IMG/VR virus record: IMGVR_UViG_3300048687_000120
Span: 1-37,017 of that record
Length of the DNA: 37,017 nucleotides
Origin: a virus
Reading direction: 5' to 3' (one strand)
Below the pieces are notes generated by a model. That model was not told where the DNA came from and made no database searches. It saw only the letters and a list, made by a program, of their open reading frames with translations. The position numbers and the translations under genes are program-made. Below, piece after piece: positions 4,710 to 21,883 of this stretch; the first letter of the stretch is position 1; each line of letters begins with the position of its first letter.

Positions 4710-5842
4710 TCGGTGCCTCTCTCAGCCGGTTCGGTGACGCGGAGCATCGACAGTGCGGCAGCGCGCCGCCCGGAGTCGGTCCGCTTGCCCGCGCGGCGCA
4801 GGCCGACCTTGCGGTACAGCTCCACCATGGCGTCGCTGTGCCAGTCGTCTCCGGTGGCATCGCGGATCTCCGCGGCGCTGAGCCCGAGGGCGCCGAGGTC
4901 GGTGGGGACGCCGGCGCGCAGTCCGTGGGCGGTGACGTTCTCGGCGACGTCGACGTCGGCCTCCACGGCGCGGGCCTTGACGATGTTGTTGACGGCTTGC
5001 CGGGTGAGTCCCTGGCCGGTCTTGGAGCTGACGGGACCGAGGTTGCCCCACATGTCGACGTTGCGCAGCAGCGGCAGGCGAGGGTCCGCCTGCCCGCGTT
5101 CGGCGAGTGCGTCCAGCCAGGCCCGCAGGTCGGCGAGGAAGTCGGGGTCGTCGACCTCGTACTCCTTGCCCTCGGACTCCTTGTCGTTCTTGGAGACTCG
5201 CTTGGTAAAAACGACGAGGGCGGCGGAGACCCACTGGATGTCCCCCAGCAGGAACGCGGCCAGTTCGGAGGCGCGGCCGCGGGTGAAGTAGCCGATGCCC
5301 AGCAGTACGCGGTCGCGGAGGCCGACCAGGGAATCGGTGGGGCAGACGTCCCGCATGGCGCGGAGCCGCTCGAGGTCGACCGGCGCGGAGGACCGCTTGC
5401 CCTTGCCCGCGGCGGCCCACGCATAGCGGTGGTCCTGGTAGATCTTCAGCGCGGCCGCCACGTCGGGGGTGCCCTCGAGCCCGGCGCGGGCGTTCATGTG
5501 GCGCACGGCGGTGATGGCCAGGCGCAGCGTTCCGGGCGGGGCTTCCTTGCGGCGCAGGTGCGAGATGTACGAGGCGAGGTTCTTGGACGTGGTGGCCGGG
5601 CCCGGTGTGCGGCCGTTGGCGGCGCACCAGCGGGCGAACGCCTTCCACTGGTCCTCGTACGTCTGGCGGGTGTTCTCGCGGCCGCTGTTGGCCAGGTCCT
5701 CGGCGGCCTCGTCGGTGAGGGTGTCGTTGACGTCGACCACCTCGGGGACCGCGGGCAGGTGCCCGGAGGGGTCGGGCACGATCTCGGCGTCGATAACGGG
5801 GACGATCTCAGAACCGGTCACGGCCCCAGGGTACCGTAGCAC
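4706..5842 (-). CDS. int: Tyrosine integrase / site-specific recombinase
   Basis: 378 aa. Contains …GLRDRVLLGIGYFTRGRASELAAF… (catalytic-domain Arg region) and …VTAHGLRAGVPTDLGALGLS…AMVELYRK (HxxR … Y). The start is GTG 5842 or GTG 5821. Confidence 0.85.
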   Translation of the reverse strand: MLRYPGAVTGSEIVPVIDAEIVPDPSGHLPAVPEVVDVNDTLTDEAAEDLANSGRENTRQTYEDQWKAFARWCAANGRTPGPATTSKNLASYISHLRRKEAPPGTLRLAITAVRHMNARAGLEGTPDVAAALKIYQDHRYAWAAAGKGKRSSAPVDLERLRAMRDVCPTDSLVGLRDRVLLGIGYFTRGRASELAAFLLGDIQWVSAALVVFTKRVSKNDKESEGKEYEVDDPDFLADLRAWLDALAERGQADPRLPLLRNVDMWGNLGPVSSKTGQGLTRQAVNNIVKARAVEADVDVAENVTAHGLRAGVPTDLGALGLSAAEIRDATGDDWHSDAMVELYRKVGLRRAGKRTDSGRRAAALSMLRVTEPAERGTE

Positions 5843-5843
5843 T

Positions 5844-5865
5844 TTCCATAAGTGGAGTTATGGAA
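5844..5865. promoter_or_regulatory. AT-rich perfect inverted repeat abutting the int start (operator or attP-arm candidate)
   Basis: TTCCATAA (5844-5851) - GTGGAG - TTATGGAA (5858-5865), in an otherwise GC-rich genome. Confidence 0.35.
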
Positions 5866-6039
5866 TGTGGTAAGCCCATACAGCCTCTCGGGGCGGGCGG
5901 AGCCGGGGATCGGCGCCGATCACTGCTGGTGGTTTGGGGGTCGGGGAACAAGCCGGGAGACTGCTCACGGTTACTGGGCCGCGGGGCGTTGTGCTGCCGG
6001 GGCGGCAGGAGGACGCTGGCCCCGACGAGAGGGGCGCCC

Positions 6040-6216
6040 ATGGGCTGGGTGGATTCGCAGTACATTCGCGTCCTCCAGGACGACCCGCGGTACGGGCGAC
6101 TGCTCAGCCTCACCCGGCGGCTGCTGGAGGTACGCATGCCCACCTGCACCAACGCGGGATGTCAGGGCGGGACGATCACCGTGAAGGACGCCGACGGAAG
6201 GGCCGGCGGCCGGTAG
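6040..6216 (+). CDS. Hypothetical small protein
   Basis: The last 58 codons of track ORF 5860..6216 (MGWVDSQYIRVLQDDPRYGRLLSLTRRLLEV…CTNAGCQGG…). A purine-rich stretch (GAGAGGGG) lies upstream and a hairpin follows. Confidence 0.45.
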   Translation: MGWVDSQYIRVLQDDPRYGRLLSLTRRLLEVRMPTCTNAGCQGGTITVKDADGRAGGR

Positions 6217-6225
6217 ACACCGCAA

Positions 6226-6252
6226 CGCCTCCGCCCTCGATCGGGCGGGGCG
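6226..6252. terminator. Bidirectional hairpin between convergent genes
   Basis: CCGCCC (6231-6236) TCGATC GGGCGG (6243-6248), extendable with one bulge. It lies between the 6216 (+) stop and the 6266 (-) stop. Confidence 0.5.
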
Positions 6253-6265
6253 CGTTCGTGTCCGG

Positions 6266-6688
6266 CTACGGGCGCCACTCCTCGCGGTAGCCGGGCCGGT
6301 CCGCGTACACGGCGGCGAGGGCGGCGAGGATGGGTGAGTCGTCAGTCTGTGGATCCCAGCCCCCCATCATGCGGCGGCGCTCGGCGGCGTACCGCTTGTG
6401 CTGCTCAATGATCTGCCGCTTGGCGTCGATCTCGCGCAGCACCCGGGCCGGATCCCACCGTTCGATGTGCCGGCCCACCCCGTCGTCATCGGCGTTGTAC
6501 GGGCTCACGTTCACCACGCCATCGTCCAGGTAGTCCACGATGACGTACTGCTCGTAACGGGCCTGGGGTGGGCGGGCAGTCCATACGTCCGACTGGTCAT
6601 CCCAGCAGGCCGCGCGCGCAATCCGCTCGTCCTCGTCGATCTGCTCGCCGAGCCACTGCACCAGGTCCATGCCCTGAGTCTGGCGCAC
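6266..6688 (-). CDS. DUF6221-like protein (actinobacterial/phage family ending …PGYREEWRP)
   Basis: 140 aa: …ARVLREIDAKRQIIEQHKR…LAALAAVYADRPGYREEWRP. The family is assigned from memory of this C-terminal signature. Confidence 0.6.
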   Translation of the reverse strand: MRQTQGMDLVQWLGEQIDEDERIARAACWDDQSDVWTARPPQARYEQYVIVDYLDDGVVNVSPYNADDDGVGRHIERWDPARVLREIDAKRQIIEQHKRYAAERRRMMGGWDPQTDDSPILAALAAVYADRPGYREEWRP

Positions 6689-6712
6689 CCGGCCGCCGTC
6701 GTTTCCCCCGGT

Positions 6713-6940
6713 TCAGGGGCGCCAGTCCTCGTGGTAGCCGGGCCGGTTGCGGTAGGCGAGGGCGAGCACGCGGTCGATGTCGTCGTCGTGGCGGGCGAAC
6801 AGCCGGCGCCGGGCGTCGGTCTCGCGCAGCAGTGCGGCCACCGGGCCGTCGTCCGGGGCGGCCTGGGCGCGGGCGTCGTCCGCGGCGAGCTGCCGGTCCA
6901 GCCAGCCGCGCAGTCCAGGGGTGTGGTCGTCGGCATCCAT
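6713..6940 (-). CDS. Short DUF6221-like paralogue
   Basis: 75 aa from ATG 6940 (SD GGAAGGGGG): MDADDHTPGLRGWLDRQL…LLRETDARRRLFARH…LALAYRNRPGYHEDWRP. It has the same C-terminal signature as the neighbour. Confidence 0.6.
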   Translation of the reverse strand: MDADDHTPGLRGWLDRQLAADDARAQAAPDDGPVAALLRETDARRRLFARHDDDIDRVLALAYRNRPGYHEDWRP

Positions 6941-7065
6941 CGGCTGCCCCCTTCCGCTTGAACCCGTCAACTCTGCCAGTCGACCGCGGGTGATCGCAGG
7001 GTGGATAGCACACGGGTGCCGGGCGCGGATCGGCCCGGGTGCCGTCCGGCGCCGGGAGCCGGGAG

Positions 7066-7074
7066 CTAGGTTCT
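7066..7074 (+). promoter_or_regulatory. Third copy of the switch-region operator half-site CTAGGTTCT, 6 nt upstream of the parA ATG
   Basis: The exact 9-mer also occurs at 14494-14502, and as its reverse complement at 14469-14477. Confidence 0.45.
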
Positions 7075-7079
7075 CGACC

Positions 7080-8009
7080 ATGACGCGAATCGACAGAACG
7101 CCGCTGCCCGCGTTGTCCGGGCCGCCGGGCGACCGGCTCGAGGTCGTCTCCGCCTTCGACGAGGAGATCCCCTACCAGGCGTGGCGCGCGGAGCTGTACG
7201 TGCCGCCGACGTTCCGCCCGGGCCAGGTGGCCATCACCTATGTGGTGGTGAACCAGAAGGGCGGCGCGGGCAAGACGATCACCACCGTCGAACTGGCGGC
7301 GGCGTGGGCGGCACGGGGCCGGCGGGTGCGGGTCATCGACGCCGACCACCAGGAGGCGGCGCTGTCGATGTGGCTGCTGCCGCAGTACCCGGAAGGTGCG
7401 CCGCGGCACTCGCTGCGGTCGGTGTTCTTCGACGAGGCGAGCCTGGCCGAGGCCACCTATCCGACCCGGTTCGCCGGGATCGACATCGTGCCGTCCGGGA
7501 TGGACCTGCAGCGGGTGGAGTACGAGCGGCCGATCGGCGCCGAGTCCGCGCTGGCGCAGGCCCTGGCCGCGGAGGAGGCGGACGCGGGCGGCCGCGCCCC
7601 CTACGACGTGACGCTGATCGATGCGGCGCCGTCGCTGGGCCTGGTCACGGTGGCCGCGCTGACCGCGGCCCGCAAGGCGCTGGTGCCGGTGAAGGTGGGC
7701 GGCCTGGACCTGAAGGCGATGGCGTCGCTGCACAAGACGATCCGCAGCGTGCAGCGCAAGACCAACCCGAAGCTCGGGGTGGACGCGGTGTTCCTGACCG
7801 CGTGGGACAAGAGCGACTTTGCCCGGCAGCTGGCGGCCCAGGTGAGCCAGGACTACCCGGAGGCGGTCGTGGTGCCGGTGCGGCGCAGTATCCGGGCGGC
7901 CGAGGCGCCGCTGTCGGAGGAGCCGGTGCGCCTGTACGCGCCGAAGTCGACGACGGCGTCCGACTACGACCAGGCGGCCGACGTGCTGCTCGAGGGGGTG
8001 GCCCGGTGA
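7080..8009 (+). CDS. parA: ParA/Soj-family partition ATPase
   Basis: From ATG 7080: …VAITYVVVNQKGGAGKTITTVELAAAWAARGRRVRVIDADHQ… (deviant Walker A KGGxGK[ST]). The track ORF is extended upstream to 6777. Confidence 0.85.
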   Translation: MTRIDRTPLPALSGPPGDRLEVVSAFDEEIPYQAWRAELYVPPTFRPGQVAITYVVVNQKGGAGKTITTVELAAAWAARGRRVRVIDADHQEAALSMWLLPQYPEGAPRHSLRSVFFDEASLAEATYPTRFAGIDIVPSGMDLQRVEYERPIGAESALAQALAAEEADAGGRAPYDVTLIDAAPSLGLVTVAALTAARKALVPVKVGGLDLKAMASLHKTIRSVQRKTNPKLGVDAVFLTAWDKSDFARQLAAQVSQDYPEAVVVPVRRSIRAAEAPLSEEPVRLYAPKSTTASDYDQAADVLLEGVAR

Positions 8010-8950
8010 GCGCGCGGCGCCTGCTGACACTGCCGTCCACGGTCAGCGAGGAGAGCGAGGAGAGTGAGGAGTCCGGCGGCCAGCTCGGGCTGCCCGGGCA
8101 GGCCACGGGGGTGGTGGCCGAGTTGACCGGGGCCGATGTCTCCTCGGTGGTGTCGGTGCAGCAGCTGCCCGCCCCCTACGACGTGGCCGCCGAGGTTGCG
8201 GGGCCGCTCAGTGCGAAGGAGCGCGGCGACCTCGAGCTGTGCGAGCAGGCGCTGCACGGCTTCCGCAAGGCGCTGATCGTGGCGGGCAAGGCGCTGGAGG
8301 TCATCAAGCGGGGGCGGCTGTACCGGGAGACGCACGCGACGTTCGAGGACTACGTGATGGAGGCGTGGGGGTTCAAGCGGGCGCACGCCTACCGGCTGAT
8401 CGACGGGTGGCCGGTGGCCGCCGCGATGTCTCCAATTGGAGACATCAACGAGGCGCAGGCCCGCACGCTGCTGCCGGCCTGGAGGGGGCACGGGCCGGAT
8501 GCCACGGCCGTGCTGTACCGGGAGGTGCGCGAGCTCAGCGGCGGGAAGGTGACCGCGGCCGCGCTCGAGCAGGCGGTGCAGGTACTGCCCAAGCGGCTCG
8601 CCGCACCGGAGCAGGCGGCCGACGTGCTGCGGGTGGCCGCCGCCGAGGGCCGGGTGCCGCTGATCGTGCCGCCGCGTGTCGCGGCGCGGGCCGTCGTCGA
8701 CGAGCCGGCCGGGGACGAGGCCACGGACCCCGGGGTGGAGGCCATGGCGGTGCTCGAGGCCGCCCTGGCGCAGCAGCGGCAGATCTACGACCGGCTCGCC
8801 GGGGTGGTGCCCGCCGCGCTCGCCTTCGATCCGGGGCGGGCCGAGGTGTTGCTGGCCGAGCTGCGCCAGTACGCGAAGCGCACCGGCTATCGGGCGAAGG
8901 GTCGGAGCAAGGGCGGGGGAACACCGGAGGAGGATCAGGGGGAGGATTGA
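8006..8950 (+). CDS. ParB-like / HTH centromere-binding partner candidate
   Basis: GTG 8006 overlaps the parA stop (GTGA). Contains …IKRGRLYRETHATFEDYVMEAWGFKRAHAYRLIDGW…, which resembles ParB/KorB-type HTH regions. No clear ParB N-terminal GERRxR box seen. Confidence 0.5.
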   Translation: MSARRLLTLPSTVSEESEESEESGGQLGLPGQATGVVAELTGADVSSVVSVQQLPAPYDVAAEVAGPLSAKERGDLELCEQALHGFRKALIVAGKALEVIKRGRLYRETHATFEDYVMEAWGFKRAHAYRLIDGWPVAAAMSPIGDINEAQARTLLPAWRGHGPDATAVLYREVRELSGGKVTAAALEQAVQVLPKRLAAPEQAADVLRVAAAEGRVPLIVPPRVAARAVVDEPAGDEATDPGVEAMAVLEAALAQQRQIYDRLAGVVPAALAFDPGRAEVLLAELRQYAKRTGYRAKGRSKGGGTPEEDQGED

Positions 8951-8972
8951 CCTGCAGACGCGGGGGCGCATG

Positions 8973-9015
8973 CGAAGGGCCCGTTACCTCGGGGGTCGGG
9001 GTGACGGGCCCTTCG
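8973..9015. terminator. Bidirectional terminator hairpin (12-bp perfect stem)
   Basis: CGAAGGGCCCGT (8973-8984) / ACGGGCCCTTCG (9004-9015), between convergent stops at 8950 and 9028. Confidence 0.65.
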
Positions 9016-9027
9016 TCGTGTCCGGAC

Positions 9028-9684
9028 TCAGGCGGTGAGGTCGGGCTGGCCGAGTGCCATCCAGGTGTCGAGCCACTGGGTGGGGTCCAGCTCGGTACGG
9101 CAGGTGCGGCAGGAGGCGAGGCGCCGGGCGTGGTCGTAGCGCATCCGCCCGTCGCAGCGGTCGCCGTCGGGAAGTTCGGCCGGGCACGGCACGGCGGGCG
9201 GGCGGGGGGCCCCGCCGGTCACCGCGGTCATCTCCTCGACGACCTTGCCGAGTTCGTCGTCGAGGAGGCGCAGGTCGCATCCCTGGACCGCCCATGACAG
9301 GTGCCGGCGGATGCCGCGCAGCGCCAGGCGGAGGCGGCCGTCCGCGCCGGTGGGCATCAGCTGCGGGGCGAACCCGCGGGCCGCGGAGATGTCGGCGTAG
9401 CGCCAGTACAGGCGGGTCGGGACGCCGCCCGGGCCGATCAGGTTGAGGACCTGTTCGGCGGCCGGGAGCGGCGGGTGGGTGCTGCCGGAGACGCGGGGCC
9501 CGCCGTGCCCGCGGGTCGGCTCGAGGCTGTCGGACAGCTGCGCCCACAGGTCGGGAACCGCGTCGAGGCGGGCGGTGATGCGGGCCTCGCAGCGCGGGCA
9601 GGTGGTCCAGGTGGCCCGGTCGCCGTGCAGGCCGTGCCCGCAGATGGTGCAGACGTTCACGTGCACTCCCGTGTCAGGCAGCAA
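9028..9684 (-). CDS. Hypothetical protein with N- and C-terminal Cys4 zinc-ribbon-like motifs
   Basis: …VCTICGHG…TTCPRCEARI… and …CPAELPDGDRCDG…ASCRTCRTEL. The likely true start is GTG 9666 or 9660 (GGGAG SD). Confidence 0.55.
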   Translation of the reverse strand: MLPDTGVHVNVCTICGHGLHGDRATWTTCPRCEARITARLDAVPDLWAQLSDSLEPTRGHGGPRVSGSTHPPLPAAEQVLNLIGPGGVPTRLYWRYADISAARGFAPQLMPTGADGRLRLALRGIRRHLSWAVQGCDLRLLDDELGKVVEEMTAVTGGAPRPPAVPCPAELPDGDRCDGRMRYDHARRLASCRTCRTELDPTQWLDTWMALGQPDLTA

Positions 9685-10024
9685 GCTGCGGGCGGCGGAT
9701 GAGCTGGCGTATGAGGGCGGGGGCCGGGGCGCCGCGGCGCCGGCCGGTGGATCCGGCGCGGCACCGGCACGGGTGGCCGGAGCGGGCGGGCACGGCCGGC
9801 TGCGGCGCGCTGGGGTAGTCCAGGGCCAGCTCGAGGTCCTGCAGTTGGGGGTGGGTGATGCTCATCCATCCGGCGAGCCGGTGCAGGTGCTCGGGGTCGG
9901 CGCCGTGGTCGAGGTGGTCCTGGATCTGGCGGGCGATGCCGCGGACGGCGCAGGTGGAGCGGTCGGTGCCGTCGGCCCAGTAGCGGGCGATCCGTCGTGC
10001 GGTGGCGCTCACGGGCGTGTCCAT
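9674..10024 (-). CDS. Hypothetical protein
   Basis: 116-aa ORF with ATG 10024. The N-terminal two thirds look protein-like; the C-terminus is Arg/Pro-rich. Confidence 0.5.
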   Translation of the reverse strand: MDTPVSATARRIARYWADGTDRSTCAVRGIARQIQDHLDHGADPEHLHRLAGWMSITHPQLQDLELALDYPSAPQPAVPARSGHPCRCRAGSTGRRRGAPAPALIRQLIRRPQLAA

Positions 10025-10081
10025 CGGGGGGACGCTGCCTTTCTGTCAGTTGTTGATCAGAGCGGCCCCGCGCCTGGTTTC

Positions 10082-10110
10082 AGAGTGGCATGGATTTCCA
10101 GATGTGTTCC
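10082..10110 (-). promoter_or_regulatory. Candidate promoter PB (-35 GGAACA, 17-nt spacer, -10 CACTCT)
   Basis: Same 18-mer as at 4082-4099, with the same hexamer spacing. It lies about 55-80 nt upstream of ATG 10024. Confidence 0.45.
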
Positions 10111-10213
10111 CCCCGCTCCCCCTTGCCGAGCGATGGCCTGCGGGTATGGCGGAGGGCCCGCCCCGGTGTACGGGAACGGGCGCTCGCTGTCGGGCTGGTG
10201 GCGGTGCGTCAGG

Positions 10214-11572
10214 TCACGTCCATGCCGCTTCCTTCGCACCCTGCTGCGCCGGGACGGGTGCGGGCGGGGCCTGGAATCCCTCGGGGCCCGCCGCCTGCCA
10301 CGGCCAGCTGGCGCCCCGCATGAACCCCTCAGGCCAGTCGCGTTCGCTGCGGCTGCCACGCCACGGGTGCCAGCGGACCAGGCCCTCCTCCTCGGCGAAC
10401 TGGATCTCCTTGTTGGAGACCGGGGCGAGACCGAATCCGAACTCGGGCCAGCGCATCCACAGTGAGGAGCCGATGGGGCGATAGTCACGCTGCCGCTCGC
10501 CCCCGGCACGGTGTGGGGCGTGTGCCTCGATCAGCATGGCCGCGCCGTTGGAGGCGACCCTGACGGACTCCAGGGCGGACATGAGGGTGCGGGCGACTTC
10601 TTCGTCATTGGGGTTGCCGCCGGCGAGCTTGTACAGCGGACCGATGGCGATCATGTCGGGGGTGTTGCGCTCGACCAGGCGCAGCAGCCGGGCCCGGTCG
10701 CCGGGGTTGTTCAGGTCCAGGCCGCCCTCGATGACCTCAACTTTGAAGTTGTTGAGCAGGTCGCCCACGTCGCCGTCCAGTTCCTGGCGGGCTGCCTGCT
10801 GCATGCTGCGCAGCCACGGCCGGACCTGCGATCTGCTGTTCTCGACGTCGACCAGGAGCACGCGCTTGGGCACGATGCGGGCTTTCTTCCAGGGGTGCAG
10901 GCCTGCTGCGGTGCGCATGAGCAGCTGCCGGTTGAACAGGGACTTGCCGCCGCCCTCGGGTGCGGTGACGATGAGCCGGTCCCACCGGGCGAGGACGCCG
11001 GGGATGACCCACTCGGGTTCGTCGTCGGCCTCGTCCAGGAACTCGCCCAGGGTCGGCGTCGGAGTGTCGGTGGCTGCCATGCCCCGGTCGCGGACCGCCC
11101 GCAGCCGTTCGACGCCATCCTCCAGCACCTCGGTGACGTCGCCCTGGCGCGCGAACAGGGCCTGCACGGTGCGGGTCGACTCCTCGATCCCACCGCGAGC
11201 GGCCGCGTGCTCGGCGACGATCTCGGCATAGTGCTCGGACTGGCCGGGAGTGGACACGCTCCGCACCAGTTCGTGCAGATAGCTAGGGCCGCCCATCCGG
11301 TAGATGTCGCCGCTCTTGGTGAGCTCGGCCGCGACCGTGATCGGGTCCGCCTGCTCCTGCCCGCGGGCATGCACCGTCAGGATCGCGTCGTACACGGTCT
11401 GATGGGCGGGCTTGTAGAACTCGGTGCCGCTGGTCAGGATGCGGGACACCTCGGCGACGGCGTCTCTGGACAGCAGCATGCCGCCGAGGATGGCCTGCTC
11501 GGCGTCCAGGTCCTGCGGGGGCAGCCGCTCGAACGGCATCGGGGGTGCGGTGTCGTCGAAGTCTGGTTCCAT
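10214..11572 (-). CDS. Replicative helicase-like protein: DnaB N-terminal domain fused to a RecA-like (AAA_25/RepA-type) ATPase
   Basis: From ATG 11572 (SD GGAGA): …PPQDLDAEQAILGGMLLSRDAV…YKPAHQTVYDAI… (DnaB-N), then …LIVTAPEGGGKSLFNRQL… (Walker A) and …VLLVDVEN… (Walker B-like). Confidence 0.75.
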   Translation of the reverse strand: MEPDFDDTAPPMPFERLPPQDLDAEQAILGGMLLSRDAVAEVSRILTSGTEFYKPAHQTVYDAILTVHARGQEQADPITVAAELTKSGDIYRMGGPSYLHELVRSVSTPGQSEHYAEIVAEHAAARGGIEESTRTVQALFARQGDVTEVLEDGVERLRAVRDRGMAATDTPTPTLGEFLDEADDEPEWVIPGVLARWDRLIVTAPEGGGKSLFNRQLLMRTAAGLHPWKKARIVPKRVLLVDVENSRSQVRPWLRSMQQAARQELDGDVGDLLNNFKVEVIEGGLDLNNPGDRARLLRLVERNTPDMIAIGPLYKLAGGNPNDEEVARTLMSALESVRVASNGAAMLIEAHAPHRAGGERQRDYRPIGSSLWMRWPEFGFGLAPVSNKEIQFAEEEGLVRWHPWRGSRSERDWPEGFMRGASWPWQAAGPEGFQAPPAPVPAQQGAKEAAWT

Positions 11573-11658
11573 GGTGGGGGATCTCCTGTTCGGATCACAA
11601 GCTGGCAGGGGGTTCGGCGGGCCGGCCCCGGCATGGGCCGGCCCGCACACATGTCCGG

Positions 11659-12669
11659 CTACAGACCGGAGCCGATGAACCTGCGTCGCGCGGGTGCGGC
11701 CACGGTCGCCTGCACCGCGGAGTACAGGCGCAGATCACGCACCCAGTTGGGCAGGCACTTGACCCAGGAGTCGGCGCCGCCGGTGTTCTTGAAGATGTCT
11801 GCCTCGAGCAGCTGCTGCTGGGCGTCGTCCATGTCGGCGATCTGCGGCCATCCCTGATCGCGCATCGCGCGCAGCAGCAACGGGGCGCACTTGCGGGCGG
11901 TAGCTGCCCCTGCCTGCCAGGTGGTCATCTGCTGCAGGAAGACCTCGGCGTTCCGGGTTTGCTCCGGAGAGAATCCCTCCCCCTCCGCTCGTTGCTGCGC
12001 CGTGCTCTTGGCGTGCGTGAGGGGGTTGGGGGAGGAGGAATCCTCCTCCTCCGGGGGGTGTGGGGGGGGAGCGTCCGATCCGGACAGGGTGTCCCGATCG
12101 GTCTGACCTGCGGCGTTGGGTGATTTCCGATCGGGACAGGGTGTCCCGATCGGCGCCGATCCGGACAGGGTGTCCCGATCGGCCTGACCTGCGCATCCGG
12201 ACAGGGTGTCCCGATCGGAAGCGGCGTTGGCCTCCCCATCGGGACAGGGTGTCCCGATCGGCCTGACCTGCAGTGCTTCCTGGACGCCGCCGCGGACATA
12301 GGCGGCGTTGTTGGCGGGGTTCCGGTAAACACGGAACACCCACTCGGGGCGCTTCGTCTCCGGGTTGTACTCCCGCTTGTGTTCCACGTGGCCGGCCTTC
12401 TTCAGCCGTCGCATGATCTTGCGGAGGTCGCGTTCGCTGAGCGTCCAGCCGCCCGTCCGGAACTCGTCGAGCAGGCCGAGGATGCTGGACGGCTGCTTCG
12501 GGTCACGGAGCAGCAGGCGGATGAGGACGCCGTAGTCGTCGAAGTCGAGGTCCGGTGAGAGCGCGAGGGCGTACGGAATGACGACCTCCTCCGGCGGCTC
12601 CCACATCCGGATGACCCGGGTTGCGGCGAAGCCAGGACCAAAGGTGTCCTGCGTGGCGTCTTGCGCCAT
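11659..12669 (-). CDS. Replication initiator candidate (winged-helix-like N-domain; iteron-containing CDS)
   Basis: From ATG 12669 (SD AGGAA): …DDYGVLIRLLLRDPKQPSSILGLLDEFRTGGWTLSERDLRKIMRRLKKAGHVEHKR…. It lies immediately upstream of the helicase gene and contains the 5x20-bp repeat array. Confidence 0.55.
   Translation of the reverse strand: MAQDATQDTFGPGFAATRVIRMWEPPEEVVIPYALALSPDLDFDDYGVLIRLLLRDPKQPSSILGLLDEFRTGGWTLSERDLRKIMRRLKKAGHVEHKREYNPETKRPEWVFRVYRNPANNAAYVRGGVQEALQVRPIGTPCPDGEANAASDRDTLSGCAGQADRDTLSGSAPIGTPCPDRKSPNAAGQTDRDTLSGSDAPPPHPPEEEDSSSPNPLTHAKSTAQQRAEGEGFSPEQTRNAEVFLQQMTTWQAGAATARKCAPLLLRAMRDQGWPQIADMDDAQQQLLEADIFKNTGGADSWVKCLPNWVRDLRLYSAVQATVAAPARRRFIGSGL
12082..12261. repeat. 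Five exact 20-bp iterons GGACAGGGTGTCCCGATCGG (candidate origin of replication)
   Basis: Copies start at 12082, 12134, 12163, 12199 and 12242. Each is the core of a 23-25 bp near-palindrome (C/G)ATC(C/G)GGACA-GGG-TGTCCCGATCG. Confidence 0.7.
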
Positions 12670-12860
12670 GTGCTTGTTCCTATCGGGTAGGAGAAGCACC
12701 GAGATCCATGTCATCCCCGGCCTGCCTTCCCGCCCTTCCCGGTGGCGGGTACAGTCCTTGATGGGACCTACGTGGAACCCAGACTTCTCATTTGTTTCGT
12801 TTCCTGCGAGACGAGAGATGTGAACCGGCGGCTTCCCGGCCGACCAGTTCGGACGCATTC

Positions 12861-13647: not shown

Positions 13648-14451
13648 CTACTCCTTCGGCCGAACAGGCTGGACGGGCCACTCAGCATCGCCTCCGCGGA
13701 CCAAGTCGGAGACGAGCTCCACCCGGTCGCTCGGAATCACCTTCATCGTGACCTCGATAGGCGCGTCGGTCCGTGCCGAGTAGCCGACCATCGTCACCTC
13801 GAAGACAGGCAGCGCCGTCGCGATGGACAGCAGGTCCGCCTCCTCCTTGCTCGGCATGCGAGCACGGATGGTCTCGCGCCAGGAGATGGGCCCGTGGCCG
13901 GCATCTTCCAGGCGGTCGAGATATCCGCCAGGGCCGGTGTCCGGCTCGGCTACCTGGGGGGCGTCGGCAACGGCGGCGGGACTGATCCATGTGTCGACCA
14001 GCTGGAAGGCGGGCTCTCCCTTGGGGGCCATGACGCGACGCCGACGCAACACGGAAGCCCCCGCCTCCACGCCGAACGTGTCGGCGACGAGTGCGGGCAC
14101 GGGCTCGAGCGATCGGAACGGCTTGCCGAGCGGACCCCACGTCTCGGACGGATCGTGGGTGGCAGGGAAGACGTAGCCGTAGTGCGGGTTGCGGGTGACG
14201 GTCTGGCCACGGCGGATACGCCGGCGCCGGACGCGGTCCTGCAAGACGATGCCGCGGCGGTTCACCGAGCGGATGAGCCCCTCGGCCGCGACCATGTTCA
14301 CGGCCGAACGGATCGTTTCCCGCGCTACGTCGTACTGGTCGGTCAGGTCCGCGATGGTTGCGAGGACTTCGCCGGGCTGCTTCTCCCCGTTGAGAACTCG
14401 GGCTCGCAGATCGTCCGCGACTTCTCGCGCGGTTCGCTTCTTGGTGGTCAT
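13648..14451 (-). CDS. GntR/HutC-family transcriptional regulator (wHTH + UTRA-like C-domain); repressor candidate
   Basis: 267 aa: …VLATIADLTDQYDVARETIRSAVNMVAAEGLIRSVNRRGIVL… followed by a ~180-aa effector-type domain. It faces a divergent promoter/operator region. Confidence 0.8.
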   Translation of the reverse strand: MTTKKRTAREVADDLRARVLNGEKQPGEVLATIADLTDQYDVARETIRSAVNMVAAEGLIRSVNRRGIVLQDRVRRRRIRRGQTVTRNPHYGYVFPATHDPSETWGPLGKPFRSLEPVPALVADTFGVEAGASVLRRRRVMAPKGEPAFQLVDTWISPAAVADAPQVAEPDTGPGGYLDRLEDAGHGPISWRETIRARMPSKEEADLLSIATALPVFEVTMVGYSARTDAPIEVTMKVIPSDRVELVSDLVRGGDAEWPVQPVRPKE

Positions 14452-18092: not shown

Positions 18093-19124
18093 GTGAAGGT
18101 ACCCGGAGAGGACACCACCGCTCCGAACGACGTCGACCAGATCCTCGGCGACGCCTTCCGGCAGTGGTGGAAGCCGGTCACGCGCTTCATCTGCACACGC
18201 GTCGACAACCGCCACCGCATGCACGCCGAGGACCTCGCCTCCCGCACCTTCGAGGAGTACTGGCGCTTCCTCGAATCGGGAAAGCGACCGCAGGGCCCGG
18301 TATGGGGACTGCTGTGCACGATGGCACGCCAAGCCATCTCGGAGTTCTACCAGGCGTTCAGCAACCGCCTCGAGTCCTCCTGCGACTTCACCGACCCGGC
18401 CAACCGCAGCATCGCGGCCGGCCACGCCTACGCCCCCGCCTCCCCGACCCTGGCCGAACTGAGCGCCGAACTGGACGCGGCCACCGCCGAGATGGAGACC
18501 ACGTCGGCTCTCTGGCGGAAGCTGCACGCCGAGTGCACCAAGGTCTACTCCCGACTGCAGCAGTCCCAGACCGCCCGCACGACGGACCGCCTGACCGCTG
18601 CGCTACGGCAGGCCGACCAGGACGCCGCGGCGCAGCTCGTCGTCTTCCGCGCCGCCTGCCACCGTGTCGGCACGCTGCGCGCCGAGATCGAGGCCGCCGC
18701 AGGTCCGCACTACCGGTCGGTGGTCGTCCAGCCCGAGGTGCCGAACCAGCGCAGCCGGCCGCACACGGTCGTCAGTGACCCGACCCTCACGCACTGCCGC
18801 ACCGGGCACCGCATGACCCTGCACAACACCCAGTTCCACGCAGACGGCACCCGTGCCTGCCGCGCCTGCAAGCACGCTCAGCACCGGCAGCGCGAGGCCG
18901 CATCCGACACCCCGAAGAACGCGCCCACCGCCCTGAAGTGCACGCCCGCTCTGATTGCCCGCGCCCGCCGGCTGTTCGCCGCCCCGGCCGCCGCTAACAG
19001 GACCCTCGCCGACCTCGGACAGGAGCTCGGCGTCAGCGTGCGCGTCCTGCGCAAGCACATCCCCGACCTCACAGAGCTGCGCCACCAGGCGCGCACCGCC
19101 GCCTTGGCAGGTACTGCCCGATGA
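18093..19124 (+). CDS. Sigma-70/ECF-like transcription factor candidate with an internal Cys/His cluster and a C-terminal HTH
   Basis: GTG 18093 (SD AAGGAA). …HAEDLASRTFEEYWRFLESGKRPQGPVWGLLCTMARQAISEFYQ… resembles sigma region 2. …RTLADLGQELGVSVRVLRKHI… resembles a region-4 HTH. …HCRTGHRM…TRACRACKH… lies between them. Confidence 0.45.
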   Translation: MKVPGEDTTAPNDVDQILGDAFRQWWKPVTRFICTRVDNRHRMHAEDLASRTFEEYWRFLESGKRPQGPVWGLLCTMARQAISEFYQAFSNRLESSCDFTDPANRSIAAGHAYAPASPTLAELSAELDAATAEMETTSALWRKLHAECTKVYSRLQQSQTARTTDRLTAALRQADQDAAAQLVVFRAACHRVGTLRAEIEAAAGPHYRSVVVQPEVPNQRSRPHTVVSDPTLTHCRTGHRMTLHNTQFHADGTRACRACKHAQHRQREAASDTPKNAPTALKCTPALIARARRLFAAPAAANRTLADLGQELGVSVRVLRKHIPDLTELRHQARTAALAGTAR

Positions 19125-20605
19125 CCACCACCCCCGAGAGGACCACCCCCGTGCGCACCACCCCCGCCTCCGCACCGGCAGCCCCCGCCACCCGCGAAGA
19201 CCACGACCAGGCCCTCCGCGACATCGCCCAGCTCGAGTCCATCGAGCAGGGCCTCACCCGTGTCCTCGTCATCCTCGGCATCGGCGGGCTGATCTTCACC
19301 GCCGTCAACGTCACCCTGTTCGCCATCGAACACGACACGCACCGGGCCATCGCCTGGATGCTCGACCCGCTCGTCTCCCTCTCCCTGCTCGCCGCGCTGT
19401 TCATCGACGGACGCCTCGCCGCCCACGGCTACAAGCCGGGCGGCTGGCCGTTCGTCCTGCGCTGGTTCGCCGGCCTCACCACCTGGCTGATGAACTGCTG
19501 GGGCGCCCTGTACCCGGGCGGGAAGTTCACCGGCTGGCCCGACCGCGCCGACCCGGCCGGCCTGGTGCTGCACTCCGCGATCCCGTTCCTCGTCATCGTC
19601 CTGGCCGAGGCGGGCGCCGGCTGGCGCCGGTTCACGCTGCGGAAGAAGCCCGAGTACCAGGCCGTCGTCGACGACTGGAAGAACCGTGAGGCCGAGCGCC
19701 GCCGCATCGCCACGGAGAAGCGGGAGAAGGAGGACCAGCGGCTCCGCGACGAGGCGGAAGCCGAGCGGAAGCGCGCCGCGGATCTCGAAGCGGAGGAGCG
19801 GAAGCTGACCGCGGAACTGGCGGCGGAGGAGAAGCGCGCCGCGATCGAGACGGCAAAAGCGCGGGACCTCGCCGACGCAGAAACGCGGCGGATCCAAGCC
19901 GAGGTCGAGGCAAAAGCGCGGACCGCGGAACTGGACCGCGAAACCGCGGAAGCGCAGGAACGCGCCGCCGCAGAAGCGCGGGAGCAGCAGGCCCGCATCG
20001 ATCGCGAGAACGCGGCGCACGCCGCCCGCCTGGAGCAGGATCGCATCGCAGCAGAAGCCGAGGCGGAAGCCGTAAAGGTCAAGGCCGCGGACGAGGCGCG
20101 GGCCGCCGAGGAGGTCCGCCTCAAGCGCCGCGAAACCGCGGAAGCGCGGCGCGCTTCCACCGCGCTTCCGGCCGCGGAACCCGCCGCGCTTCCGGCGAAG
20201 GCGACCGCGCTTTCGACCGCGATTCCGTCCGAGGCGACCGCGATTCCGACCGCGGAACCGACCGCGCCTTCGCATCCCGGCACCGCGCTTCTGTCCGACC
20301 AGGCGACCGCGATTCCGCGGAAGCTGACCGCGGTTCCGCACCGCGATTCCACCGAAGCGGACGACGTACGCGGCGCCGAGGCCAAGCGCCGGCAGATCGA
20401 GGAGGCCAACCTCGAGGCCGCGATCCTGCTCACCCTCGACCGGGCACCGACCCGCAAGGACTTCGCCGCCGGCTACGGACGCGGCGAGACGTGGGGACGG
20501 GACCGGTACGCCGACGCACAGCGTCTGCTCGCCGAGGACGAGGCGTTCGCCGCCAAGGTGCAGGCCGAGGCCGAGCAGCGCACCGCCGCCCTGGTCACCG
20601 CCTGA
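19121..20605 (+). CDS. DUF2637 / SpdB2-like polytopic membrane protein with a long charged coiled-coil and a repeat-rich C-terminal half
   Basis: About 4 TM helices at the N-terminus (…VLVILGIGGLIFTAVNVTLFAI…, …LVSLSLLAALFI…, …FAGLTTWLMNCWGAL…, …LHSAIPFLVIVLAEA…). These are followed by an E/R/A-rich region and TA(I/L/V)P repeats. Confidence 0.6.
   Translation: MTTTPERTTPVRTTPASAPAAPATREDHDQALRDIAQLESIEQGLTRVLVILGIGGLIFTAVNVTLFAIEHDTHRAIAWMLDPLVSLSLLAALFIDGRLAAHGYKPGGWPFVLRWFAGLTTWLMNCWGALYPGGKFTGWPDRADPAGLVLHSAIPFLVIVLAEAGAGWRRFTLRKKPEYQAVVDDWKNREAERRRIATEKREKEDQRLRDEAEAERKRAADLEAEERKLTAELAAEEKRAAIETAKARDLADAETRRIQAEVEAKARTAELDRETAEAQERAAAEAREQQARIDRENAAHAARLEQDRIAAEAEAEAVKVKAADEARAAEEVRLKRRETAEARRASTALPAAEPAALPAKATALSTAIPSEATAIPTAEPTAPSHPGTALLSDQATAIPRKLTAVPHRDSTEADDVRGAEAKRRQIEEANLEAAILLTLDRAPTRKDFAAGYGRGETWGRDRYADAQRLLAEDEAFAAKVQAEAEQRTAALVTA
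20135..20350. repeat. Dense array (at least 12 copies, both orientations) of the motif ACCGCG-NN-T(T/C)C(C), including 3 exact GACCGCGATTCCG
   Basis: Copies include 20216-20226, 20237-20247, 20249-20259, 20261-20271, 20282-20292, 20306-20316, 20327-20337 and 20340-20350. Spacings are 12-24 bp, most often 21. Related GACCGCGGAACTGG occurs twice near 19807 and 19921. Confidence 0.7.
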
Positions 20606-20616
20606 CCGTTCCGACA

Positions 20617-20648
20617 ACGCCCCTGCCGGGTTCGACCGGTGGGGGCGT
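20617..20648 (+). terminator. Terminator hairpin after the DUF2637 gene (13-bp stem including two G-U pairs, loop GTTCGA)
   Basis: ACGCCCCTGCCGG (20617-20629) / CCGGTGGGGGCGT (20636-20648), 12 nt after the stop. Confidence 0.6.
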
Positions 20649-20950
20649 CGGCGTGTCCGGGCTACGCACGCGCGGTAGCCGTCCGGCGGGCCGGGACCGC
20701 CTACTTACTACTTACCGACCGGGGGAGAAAGCCCCCGATGTCCGATTCTCGGGCCGGATCGGCAGGAAGTAGCGCTCTTCCGGGCCGGTCGGTAAGAAGT
20801 CAGTAACTCGGCGACGTGACGCGGGGTGACGAATCGTCATCATCACATTGCCGGGAGAAGGTGATGATGCGGGCCCCAACGCGCGCGCGCGACGCGCGTG
20901 CGCGAGGGAAGCACAACCGGTGACGCAGCGTCAAGGAATTCCGGGCAGCG

Positions 20951-20992
20951 AAAAGGCCCCCGCGGCACCCGTGTTGGGCGCCGCGGGGGCCT
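20951..20992 (-). terminator. Canonical rho-independent terminator for leftward (late) transcripts
   Basis: 13-bp perfect stem AGGCCCCCGCGGC (20954-20966) / GCCGCGGGGGCCT (20980-20992). On the minus strand it is followed by TTTT (complement of AAAA 20951-20954). Confidence 0.65.
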
Positions 20993-21232
20993 CGTCCGTT
21001 CTTCCTCCCACTTCCTCCCCCCAGGCAGGAGAACCGCCGTTCGCCCTTGTGACGTGGCCGGACGTGATGGCGACCGTGTCAGGGGGAGGGAGGAGGAGAA
21101 GCCACCACCGCCTCACGGCGGGGCGTGGCGGCGCCTCTGGCGGGCTTTCAGCCCATCGGCGGCGCGGAGTCCGCGCGCGCCTCTGCTGTCCCGGCAGACG
21201 GGCGCTGAGTGCGACTTGGCCAATCCGTGGCA

Positions 21233-21883
21233 TCACGGGTACTGGCGGCGCTGAGGATCCAACGCGGCCGCAGACGGGGACGGCTGCCCGTCGTCGTCCG
21301 GTGCCGGTGCACCATCCCGGCGGCAGACGAGCGCGTCGGGGTCGCCGGGCGGGGTCTGCAGGCTGTACCCGTCCGGGCAGGTCTGCCCGTCACGGCCATC
21401 GGCCCCGTCTTTTCCGGCGGCGCCGGCGGGGCCTGGCTCGCCCTGCGGTCCGGCCGGCCCTGGCTCGCCCTGCGCGCCTGGAGCGCCCGGTGTTCCGGCG
21501 GCGCCACTCGGGCCGGTCTTGCCCACGCCATCGGTTCCCTTCGCGCCGTTGTCGCCGTCGCTGCCGTTCTTGCCCGGTGATCCGGACGGTCCCGGGCTGC
21601 CCGGGTTTCCCGGTTCACCCTGCGCGCCGCGCGGACCCTGTATCGAACGGCCAGGGGTGCCGCGGCTCCCGGGCGGGCCAGCCACGGGTGTGCCGCCCAT
21701 CCGCTCGACCTGCCGGGCCAGCTGGTCACGCGCCTCGTTCGCCGTCCGCAGGTCGTCCGTCATCGCCTGCACCGTCAGCACGATCCAGGCGACGGCGATT
21801 CCCAGCGCGATGGCGCCGAACACCGCGAAGACGTCTCCGCGGCGCCAGCGCCGTTCCTCCGCCCGGATCTGGCCGCGCGTCAT
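21233..21883 (-). CDS. Membrane-anchored collagen-like (Gly-X-Y repeat) protein
   Basis: 216 aa from ATG 21883 (ATGA overlap with the upstream gene). N-terminal [23 protein letters not shown], a short coiled segment, about 30 G-X-Y triplets ([25 protein letters not shown]…[19 protein letters not shown]; nt ~21383-21679), and a Cys-containing C-terminal domain. Confidence 0.75.

Follow-up and report, generated by a model that had tools for sequence, protein, structure and literature searches.

A repeat array conserved at the DNA level inside a Spd-like membrane protein gene of a Streptomyces phage-plasmid, a candidate protein-binding site

What is a dense array of short DNA repeats doing inside the coding sequence (CDS) of a membrane protein gene? 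The question is raised by a temperate phage-plasmid genome, IMG/VR virus record IMGVR_UViG_3300048687_000120, analyzed here over the whole stretch from position 1 to 37,017 (37,017 nucleotides; referred to as the window), in which the array lies within a gene resembling the spd genes of Streptomyces plasmids. Little is understood of how such plasmids and plasmid-prophages are held and moved within the multinucleate mycelium. Genetically, spreading depends on Spd proteins, and the membrane-bound ones have no known specific DNA target; an array that is conserved, element specific, and located inside a gene would provide a membrane-bound Spd protein with a concrete target. Judging from its pattern of conservation, the array most likely acts as a double-stranded DNA (dsDNA) binding site. 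In the account that we favor, at a probability of roughly 0.4, this site in linker-coding DNA is bound by the C-terminal domain of the protein that the gene itself encodes, which would tether the element to the membrane.

The array and the other features discussed here are listed in Table 1. Start-to-start distances between consecutive units are 24, 12, 12, 21, 12, 21, 12, 12, 21, 24, 21, and 13 bp. All but one of the units are in frame (12/13), encoding T/A-A-x-P/S/L; the exception, at 20340, encodes H-R-D-S, and GCGCTTCC at 20151 (R-A-S) is likewise out of frame. The sequence and coordinates reported in an initial annotation of this locus were all correct on re-check. The exact threefold occurrence of GACCGCGATTCCG (20215-20227, 20236-20248, and 20305-20317) was reproduced, and the outlying copies placed near 19807 and 19921 are real (19808 and 19922), with further ones at 19935 and 19943. 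Several copies had been said to overlap the palindrome TTCCGCGGAA, which is present in exact form only once, at 20313-20322. The description of copies in both orientations holds only if units containing GAA are read as inverted TTC; when anchored on ACCGC, all units lie on the + strand.

Motif scans of the window place the matches predominantly in the array. For ACCGCGNTTCC, there are 6 exact matches in 37 kb, all within 20159-20350, where shuffled sequences give an expectation of 0.15 and 0 of 100 shuffles reached 6. The pattern ACCGCGNNTYC matches 8 times (1.75 expected), every time in the array, and ACCGCRNWW matches 16 times versus 7.0 expected, with 14 of these matches at 19808-20348, all on the + strand. 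The motif is therefore not spread through coding DNA, and it was restricted to the Spd-like gene in every locus examined. In the sparser outlying segment, GCR-GAA hexamers are enriched in the part coding for a coiled coil; GCR-GAA outnumbers GCY-GAA 93 to 14 across the family (odds ratio, 4.2; p = 1e-12), and it accounts for 1 of 72 Ala-Glu pairs in other window genes. A search for promoter and terminator consensus sites at 19000-21400 found none.

Conservation was assessed with relatives of the Spd-like protein, of which there are 54 (roughly 35 to 60% identity). In all of them, a long charged helix is followed by a repeat region of variable length and then by a conserved C-terminal domain. 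DNA was compared for 17 group-1 relatives, whose homologous genes share ∼55 to 60% protein identity; codon counts were taken from sets of 14 and 18 genes, and the other 31 genes of the window served as the comparison set. Every group-1 relative carries ACC-GC(G/A) followed by CTT, ATT, GTT, GAA, AAA, CAA, CCT, or ACT. Of the linker codons that follow T-A in the 14 genes, 93 of 104 end in A or T, versus 21 of 86 such codons outside the linker of these genes; within the 18 genes, the codon after T-A (ACC-GCR) does so 118 times out of 132 (89%), compared with 16.5% at other linker codons. In the other window genes, NTT makes up 2.7% of Leu/Ile/Val codons and GAA makes up 19.6% of Glu codons. The tripeptide TAV is encoded by ACC-GCR-GTT in the linker; in the membrane motif FTAVN, its last codon is GTC or GTG and never GTT (14/14 genes), and ACC-GCC-GTC is used in 11/14. 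Thr and Pro of the repeat units are encoded by ACC and CCG, both of them common codons, and Ala shuns its commonest codon, GCC. Out-of-frame copies of ACCGCGGAA are found within xAA-CCG-CGG-AAG (P-R-K) in six homologues.

The resulting family consensus is G-ACCGC-R-V-(AA/TT)-C-C-G, present in 4 to 13 copies per gene, and the most frequent spacings are 12 (n = 28), 21 (n = 25), and 24 bp (n = 25). Homologues keep the DNA motif and not the peptide alone, which is the outcome of a check that had been set in advance and could have gone against a cis element. The initial annotation had proposed a nucleotide-level cis element hidden in a CDS, and this proposal is borne out by the conservation of homologue DNA together with the confinement of the motif to the gene. 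The array is a real nucleotide-level element in a coding region under strong selection. Such a second code laid over a CDS is visible through the rare codons that it forces in a 72% GC genome, and it would be erased by gene-finding and codon-optimization pipelines.

These same data bear on the view that the array is not a binding site at all, in which the peptide repeats would have been homogenized by slippage or gene conversion, the rare codons would cause pausing in the linker, or the repeats would form an mRNA feature. The units are tandem and their number varies between homologues, so expansion and contraction clearly occur, and rare-codon clusters are known at domain boundaries. However, each unit has a single codon position that ends in A or T, while Thr, Pro, and Ala show the codon choices described above; out-of-frame copies are present, and a different peptide repeat bears an analogous DNA motif (see below). 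The AA and TT steps can stand in for one another, a property that suits minor-groove reading of duplex DNA and not RNA. Folding of the RNA is ordinary (z = -1.57 for the window array and -1.37 for the relative L033), and an Rfam search of the array gave no family match. Taken with this evidence, the view that the array binds nothing appears improbable. Four narrower candidates were rejected individually: a generic rare-codon cluster, as there is only one A/T-ending codon per unit; an RNA-level element, given the unremarkable fold scores; antisense coding, since the change from GCG to GCA is silent in the sense frame and replaces Arg by Cys in the antisense frame; and intrinsic curvature by phased AA/TT steps, since spacings of 12, 21, and 24 bp are out of helical phase.

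The analogous motif on a different peptide repeat occurs in a distant clade (∼35% identity) found on 50- to 100-kb plasmids. There, the peptide repeats read A/T-S-E-S/N and A-S-I-S, and the DNA unit is CC-TCG-N-WW, in which CC-TCG is followed by GAA, ATT, AAA, or CAA and then by rare codons (AGT, TCT). A or T after TCG was counted at 59 of 63 linker positions versus 4 of 46 elsewhere. Another repeat, unrelated to these two, is carried by an unrelated DUF2637 gene with the same architecture, annotated by the Prokaryotic Genome Annotation Pipeline (PGAP) (L048; NZ_CP109525.1, 22434-23999, minus strand), which contains about seven CGA-GCA-GCC-GAA-GC(G/C) copies that employ rare codons and lie in the part coding for a coiled coil. 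The L048 plasmid has a MobF relaxase gene, yet MOB-suite types it as non-mobilizable. Three sequence-unrelated versions of the array can thus be distinguished: ACCGCR-N-WW, CCTCG-N-WW, and CGAGCAGCCGAAGC. In short homologues of the membrane domain, of ∼300 amino acids (aa) (L017-L029; e.g., L022, 9707-10828), TCCACC / GTCCAC recurs five to seven times in the parts coding for the linker and the C-terminal helix-turn-helix (HTH) region; these repeats use common codons, and selection on DNA and selection on peptide are not separable there. On pJV1 (L040, NC_001759.1), four GTGAGC(G/A)C units at 1540-1600 are spaced 12, 21, and 12 bp apart. They fall in the linker-coding part of the homologue at 666-1781, and their spacing pattern is that of the window array.

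The gene had originally been labeled DUF2637/SpdB2-like. By synteny, a Spd-like designation is reasonable, but membership in DUF2637 is unproven: Pfam has no family for the window protein or for any of its 54 relatives, and the DUF2637 profile matched none of 23 family members even at an E value of ≤10. Weak matches to DUF6264 were obtained for 13 of the 23. A tblastn search with the membrane domain retrieved a pSNA1 gene at 55% identity, a pJV1 gene at 30%, and a PGAP-named DUF2637 protein at 27% (E = 5e-6, a remote match). In AlphaFold2 (AF2) models based on the family alignment, membrane helices span aa 25-71, 75-101, and 109-130, and a fourth begins at aa 145, giving a membrane part of ∼aa 25-168; the fourth helix is predicted to continue unbroken to aa 336 (aa 145-336, ∼190 residues). 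These helices, the hydropathy profile, and the homologues on pJV1, pSNA1, and CP109049 mark the product as a four-helix integral membrane protein of a tra/spd module. The pJV1 homologue has the same architecture as the window protein, namely, membrane domain, charged helix, short repeat, and HTH.

Beyond the linker lies the conserved C-terminal domain, which AF2 models on its own with a predicted local distance difference test (pLDDT) score of 93. Its nearest folds by Foldseek are sigma region 4, GerE, DeoR, and DnaA domain IV-like HTH (TM-scores of 0.54 to 0.68); a search of its sequence against the PDB gave no match. The basic stretch RRFTLRKK follows helix 4, and by the positive-inside rule, the C-terminal part would be cytoplasmic. 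A profile search for the domain elsewhere returned 4 matches only, with no plasmid or phage relatives outside those already known. Among the matches is a family of soluble proteins of 165 to 171 aa (P0055-P0057), composed of a Cys-rich N terminus, a second HTH-like segment, and a C-terminal domain ∼67% identical to that of the window protein. Since soluble proteins share it, the domain appears to be a mobile module.

We consider this HTH-like domain the most likely binder of the array. Each unit of ∼13 bp would consist of G-ACCGC-R, a single free base, either AA or TT, and CCG, and would be read by a major-groove contact on ACCGCR combined with adjacent minor-groove recognition of AA/TT, a readout that the interchangeability of the two steps fits. 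The protein would be held in the membrane via its four N-terminal helices, with the long ∼190-residue helix extending into the cytoplasm, so that binding of its own gene would create a tether between the phage-plasmid DNA and the membrane. The tether would then serve stable inheritance as well as mycelial spreading, in line with proposals for Spd proteins. The product of the array-bearing gene is the only protein that accompanies an array in every case, and the array both lies inside the CDS of this candidate binder and matches its peptide repeat. A hint of covariation is also present: motif position 6 (G/A) tracks the Gly/Ser residue of YGR(G/S)ETW, just before the putative recognition helix, with GCG used in 10/10 Gly-type genes and GCA in 6/7 Ser-type genes, and the Ser-type genes are scattered on the membrane-domain tree.

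Several observations weigh against binding by the gene's own domain. The covariation has one exception, L049, and it is confounded, since the array and the domain-coding DNA are adjacent and would share their history after recombination. For the domain, no Foldseek match reached significance (E values above 0.4), and the soluble P0055-P0057 proteins have no TA repeats in their own sequence. Finally, direct repeats at 12, 21, and 24 bp suit a clt locus or a filament-forming protein as well as they suit an HTH monomer.

An experimental precedent for a Spd protein binding repeats within its own CDS is, by analogy, provided by SpdA2 of pIJ101, which binds sps (spdA palindromic sequence) inside its own coding region, with effects on segregational stability (Thoma et al. 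2014, PMC4170104). The sps repeats match a peptide repeat and are conserved at the DNA level across otherwise variable plasmids (PMC4170104). The window array is similarly located in a Streptomyces spd-type CDS, matches a short peptide repeat, and is conserved at the DNA level. The two differ in form, as sps is a 12-bp palindrome in 2 to 3 copies, whereas the window family has 4 to 13 direct units of ∼13 bp; no palindromic unit of the sps type makes up the array, whose units are direct and non-palindromic. They also differ in the protein, SpdA2 being small and soluble with an N-terminal DNA-binding region, while the window protein is membrane anchored with its HTH-like domain at the C terminus. 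The membrane-bound SpdB2 of pSVH1 binds dsDNA in a manner described as non-specific, and homologues on actinophages have been noted. Like SpdB2, the window protein is an integral membrane protein for which four helices are predicted, oligomeric or coiled-coil in character, and implicated in dsDNA binding. Unlike SpdB2, whose coiled coil is N-terminal (aa 1-99) and whose C-terminal domain spans aa 206-409, it has a different domain order and leaves Pfam DUF2637 unmatched.

A second parallel comes from phage lambda, where the ori iterons are protein-binding repeats inside gene O, in the part coding for a flexible linker, and are bound by the O product. The window array is likewise embedded in the linker-coding DNA of the gene for its candidate binder. 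Lambda ori, however, functions as an origin, next to an AT-rich region and served by an initiator protein, whereas the window array has no AT-rich region and its gene product is a membrane protein.

A further possibility is that the array is bound by another protein of the element or host, such as a small HTH_17 (Xis/BldC-like) protein, the GntR regulator, the extracytoplasmic function (ECF)-like sigma factor, or a replication initiator acting on iterons. Candidates are widespread: group-1 elements with enough upstream sequence encode GntR, except L043 and L046; most encode an HTH_17 protein (Pfam match in L033, L035, L037, L038, and L044); and the upstream sigma-like gene is present except in L046. 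Xis/BldC-type proteins, moreover, bind direct repeats head to tail. Yet L043 keeps its array with GntR, HTH_17, and DnaB absent from the 10 kb upstream, and in the distant clade, a TraB gene rather than a sigma-like gene lies immediately upstream of a gene with an analogous array. As for iterons, no AT-rich unwinding region is nearby (GC of ≥0.63 in every 60-bp window at 19700-20959), DnaB and a candidate initiator are encoded at 10214-12858, and a better origin candidate exists at 12127-12271. Recognition by one of these other proteins is accordingly rated as quite unlikely.

A more specific proposal in the initial annotation was that the array is parS, the centromere for the ParB-like protein encoded at 8006-8950. 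Arrays of short repeats often serve as centromeres, and, as had been stated, none flanks parAB: no array was present beside parA or the ParB-like gene, at 5800-7400 or 8800-10300. Nevertheless, the array is 11 kb away from parAB, and the array and the ParB-like family occur independently. CP109525 encodes ParA and a ParB-like protein 53% identical to that of the window, yet it has 4 scattered ACCGCRNWW matches and no array. Conversely, L038 and L042 have an array with the same motif, but their ParA is paired with an unrelated 78- to 112-aa protein of the small centromere-binding type, and L043 retains its array and lacks par genes in the upstream 10 kb. In view of this independence, identity of the array with parS is very unlikely.

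The main rival to binding by the gene's own domain is recognition by TraB in trans, with the array serving as a clt-type loading site for this FtsK-like dsDNA translocase. A helper TraB from a co-resident conjugative plasmid or actinomycete integrative and conjugative element (AICE), or a host FtsK-type pump, would then carry the phage-plasmid from one hypha or compartment to another. In known clt loci, TraB recognizes arrays of 7- to 9-bp direct repeats, and the repeat sequences are plasmid specific (GACCCGGA in pSVH1, CCGCACA(C/G)(C/G) in pJV1, and TGACACC in pWTY27). The window array resembles them in comprising several short direct repeats, 13 same-strand units sharing an ACCGCR-N-WW core, in or next to tra/spd genes; clt arrays can also reach into coding sequence, as in pWTY27, where the clt takes in 16 bp of traA. 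Its 12-bp spacing is close to that of pJV1, where CCGCACA occurs five times at a spacing of 11 to 13 bp. In the distant clade, moreover, the array-bearing gene is immediately downstream of a TraB gene (e.g., in CP109049; NCBIfam plasmid_TraB, E = 6.5e-89), and mobilization in trans via clt-like sequences has been proposed in the literature. The slot upstream of the Spd-like gene is taken by traB in the distant clade and by a sigma-like gene in the window; the idea that the sigma-like protein is itself a TraB homologue was rejected, as there is no homology between the two.

Other evidence counts against TraB. No TraB/FtsK domain (FtsK_SpoIIIE or plasmid_TraB) was detected in the window open reading frames (ORFs) scanned or in related loci, in agreement with the earlier statement that the element has no such translocase, and dependence on a variable helper would hardly explain strong conservation of the motif across many elements. 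The experimentally defined clt repeat of pJV1 lies outside the homologous gene, ∼600 bp upstream. Furthermore, the window units are longer than clt repeats, have an obligatory AA/TT step, and form an array wholly within a CDS. A clt-like ancestry is plausible, as distant homologues sit directly downstream of traB. The suggestion of a clt relic, on the other hand, is unlikely, because the array is clearly under selection although the element has no TraB. On balance, a present-day clt function is unlikely, though it is a stronger contender than any binder considered above other than the gene's own domain. If TraB in trans did use the array, temperate actinophages could be mobilized by conjugation.

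Returning to the binding of the array by the gene's own domain, cis sites embedded in tra/spd genes are a known Streptomyces theme, here met on a phage-plasmid. A broader generalization, which we offer as speculative and somewhat doubtful, is that Spd-type membrane proteins carry element-specific arrays of sites for their own domain in linker-coding DNA, forming a self-tether in cis that plasmid-living temperate phages have recruited. Under this scheme, the N-terminal helices would insert during coupled transcription-translation, and the C-terminal domain would emerge beside its own sites and lock that same DNA molecule in cis. The result would be a physical handle for intramycelial spreading, with or without TraB.

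The element around the array is a temperate siphovirus-type genome of 70 to 72% GC. Its structural genes encode an HK97-type capsid, prohead protease, portal, tail tube, and collagen-like tail fiber; its plasmid-type genes encode ParA, a 314-aa ParB-like protein, a tyrosine integrase, a DnaB-like helicase, and a GntR/UTRA regulator. In a megablast search of the window against isolated phages, the sole match was 139 bp in the tape-measure gene, and scans of viral and metagenome contigs yielded one relative each. Modules akin to those of the window are found on Streptomyces plasmids of 22 to 60 kb. The divergent layout of the GntR/UTRA regulator gene is the KorA/TraR arrangement of Streptomyces conjugative plasmids, and the synteny is conserved in relatives. 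The product of the sigma-like gene matches TIGR02952 (E = 1.5e-7) and, weakly, Sigma70_r2 and HTH_11; its CP058979 homologue has the PGAP name "sigma-70 family RNA polymerase sigma factor." The stop codon of this gene overlaps the start of the Spd-like gene (ATGA, 19121-19124), coupling the two genes translationally.

Table 1. Positions of the array, its gene, and other features in the window
Feature	Positions	Strand	Remarks
ParA gene	7081-8009	+	
ParB-like gene (314 aa)	8006-8950	+	Partition module without link to the array
ORF	11659-12858	-	399 aa, assigned to no family; directly upstream of the DnaB-like helicase gene
GntR/UTRA regulator gene	13648-14451	-	Divergent from the operon ending in the Spd-like gene
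ECF/BldN-like sigma-70-family gene	18093-19124	+	Directly upstream of the Spd-like gene
Spd-like membrane protein gene	19121-20605	+	494 aa; third-position GC content (GC3), 0.89
Sparser outlying units	19750-20134	+	ACCGCGGAA at 19808, 19922, and 19943; ACCGCGAAA at 19935
Disordered linker, aa 337-414	20129-20362	+	AF2 pLDDT below 50; coincides with the array
Dense array	20135-20351	+	13 units of G-ACCGC-R-V-(AA/TT)-C-C-G
C-terminal four-helix HTH-like domain, aa 415-493	20363-20602	+	Candidate array binder

Other repeats were observed elsewhere in the window. About three tandem copies of a 29- to 36-bp unit (CCGATCCGGACAGGGTGTCCCGATCGGCCTGA) lie at 12127-12271, within ORF 11659-12858, and are a candidate iteron set or replication origin. 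At 8973-9015, between the convergent ParB-like gene and ORF 9028-9684, a 19-bp inverted repeat (89% complementary, with a 5-nucleotide loop) probably serves as a bidirectional terminator. Where the integrase gene starts, at 5837-5872, there is an AT-rich inverted repeat of 15 bp (TAGCACTTTCCATAA / TTATGGAATGTGGTA), which may function as an operator or belong to attP. An intergenic (CG)n-like run of ∼12 dinucleotides occupies 20879-20905, downstream of the Spd-like gene.

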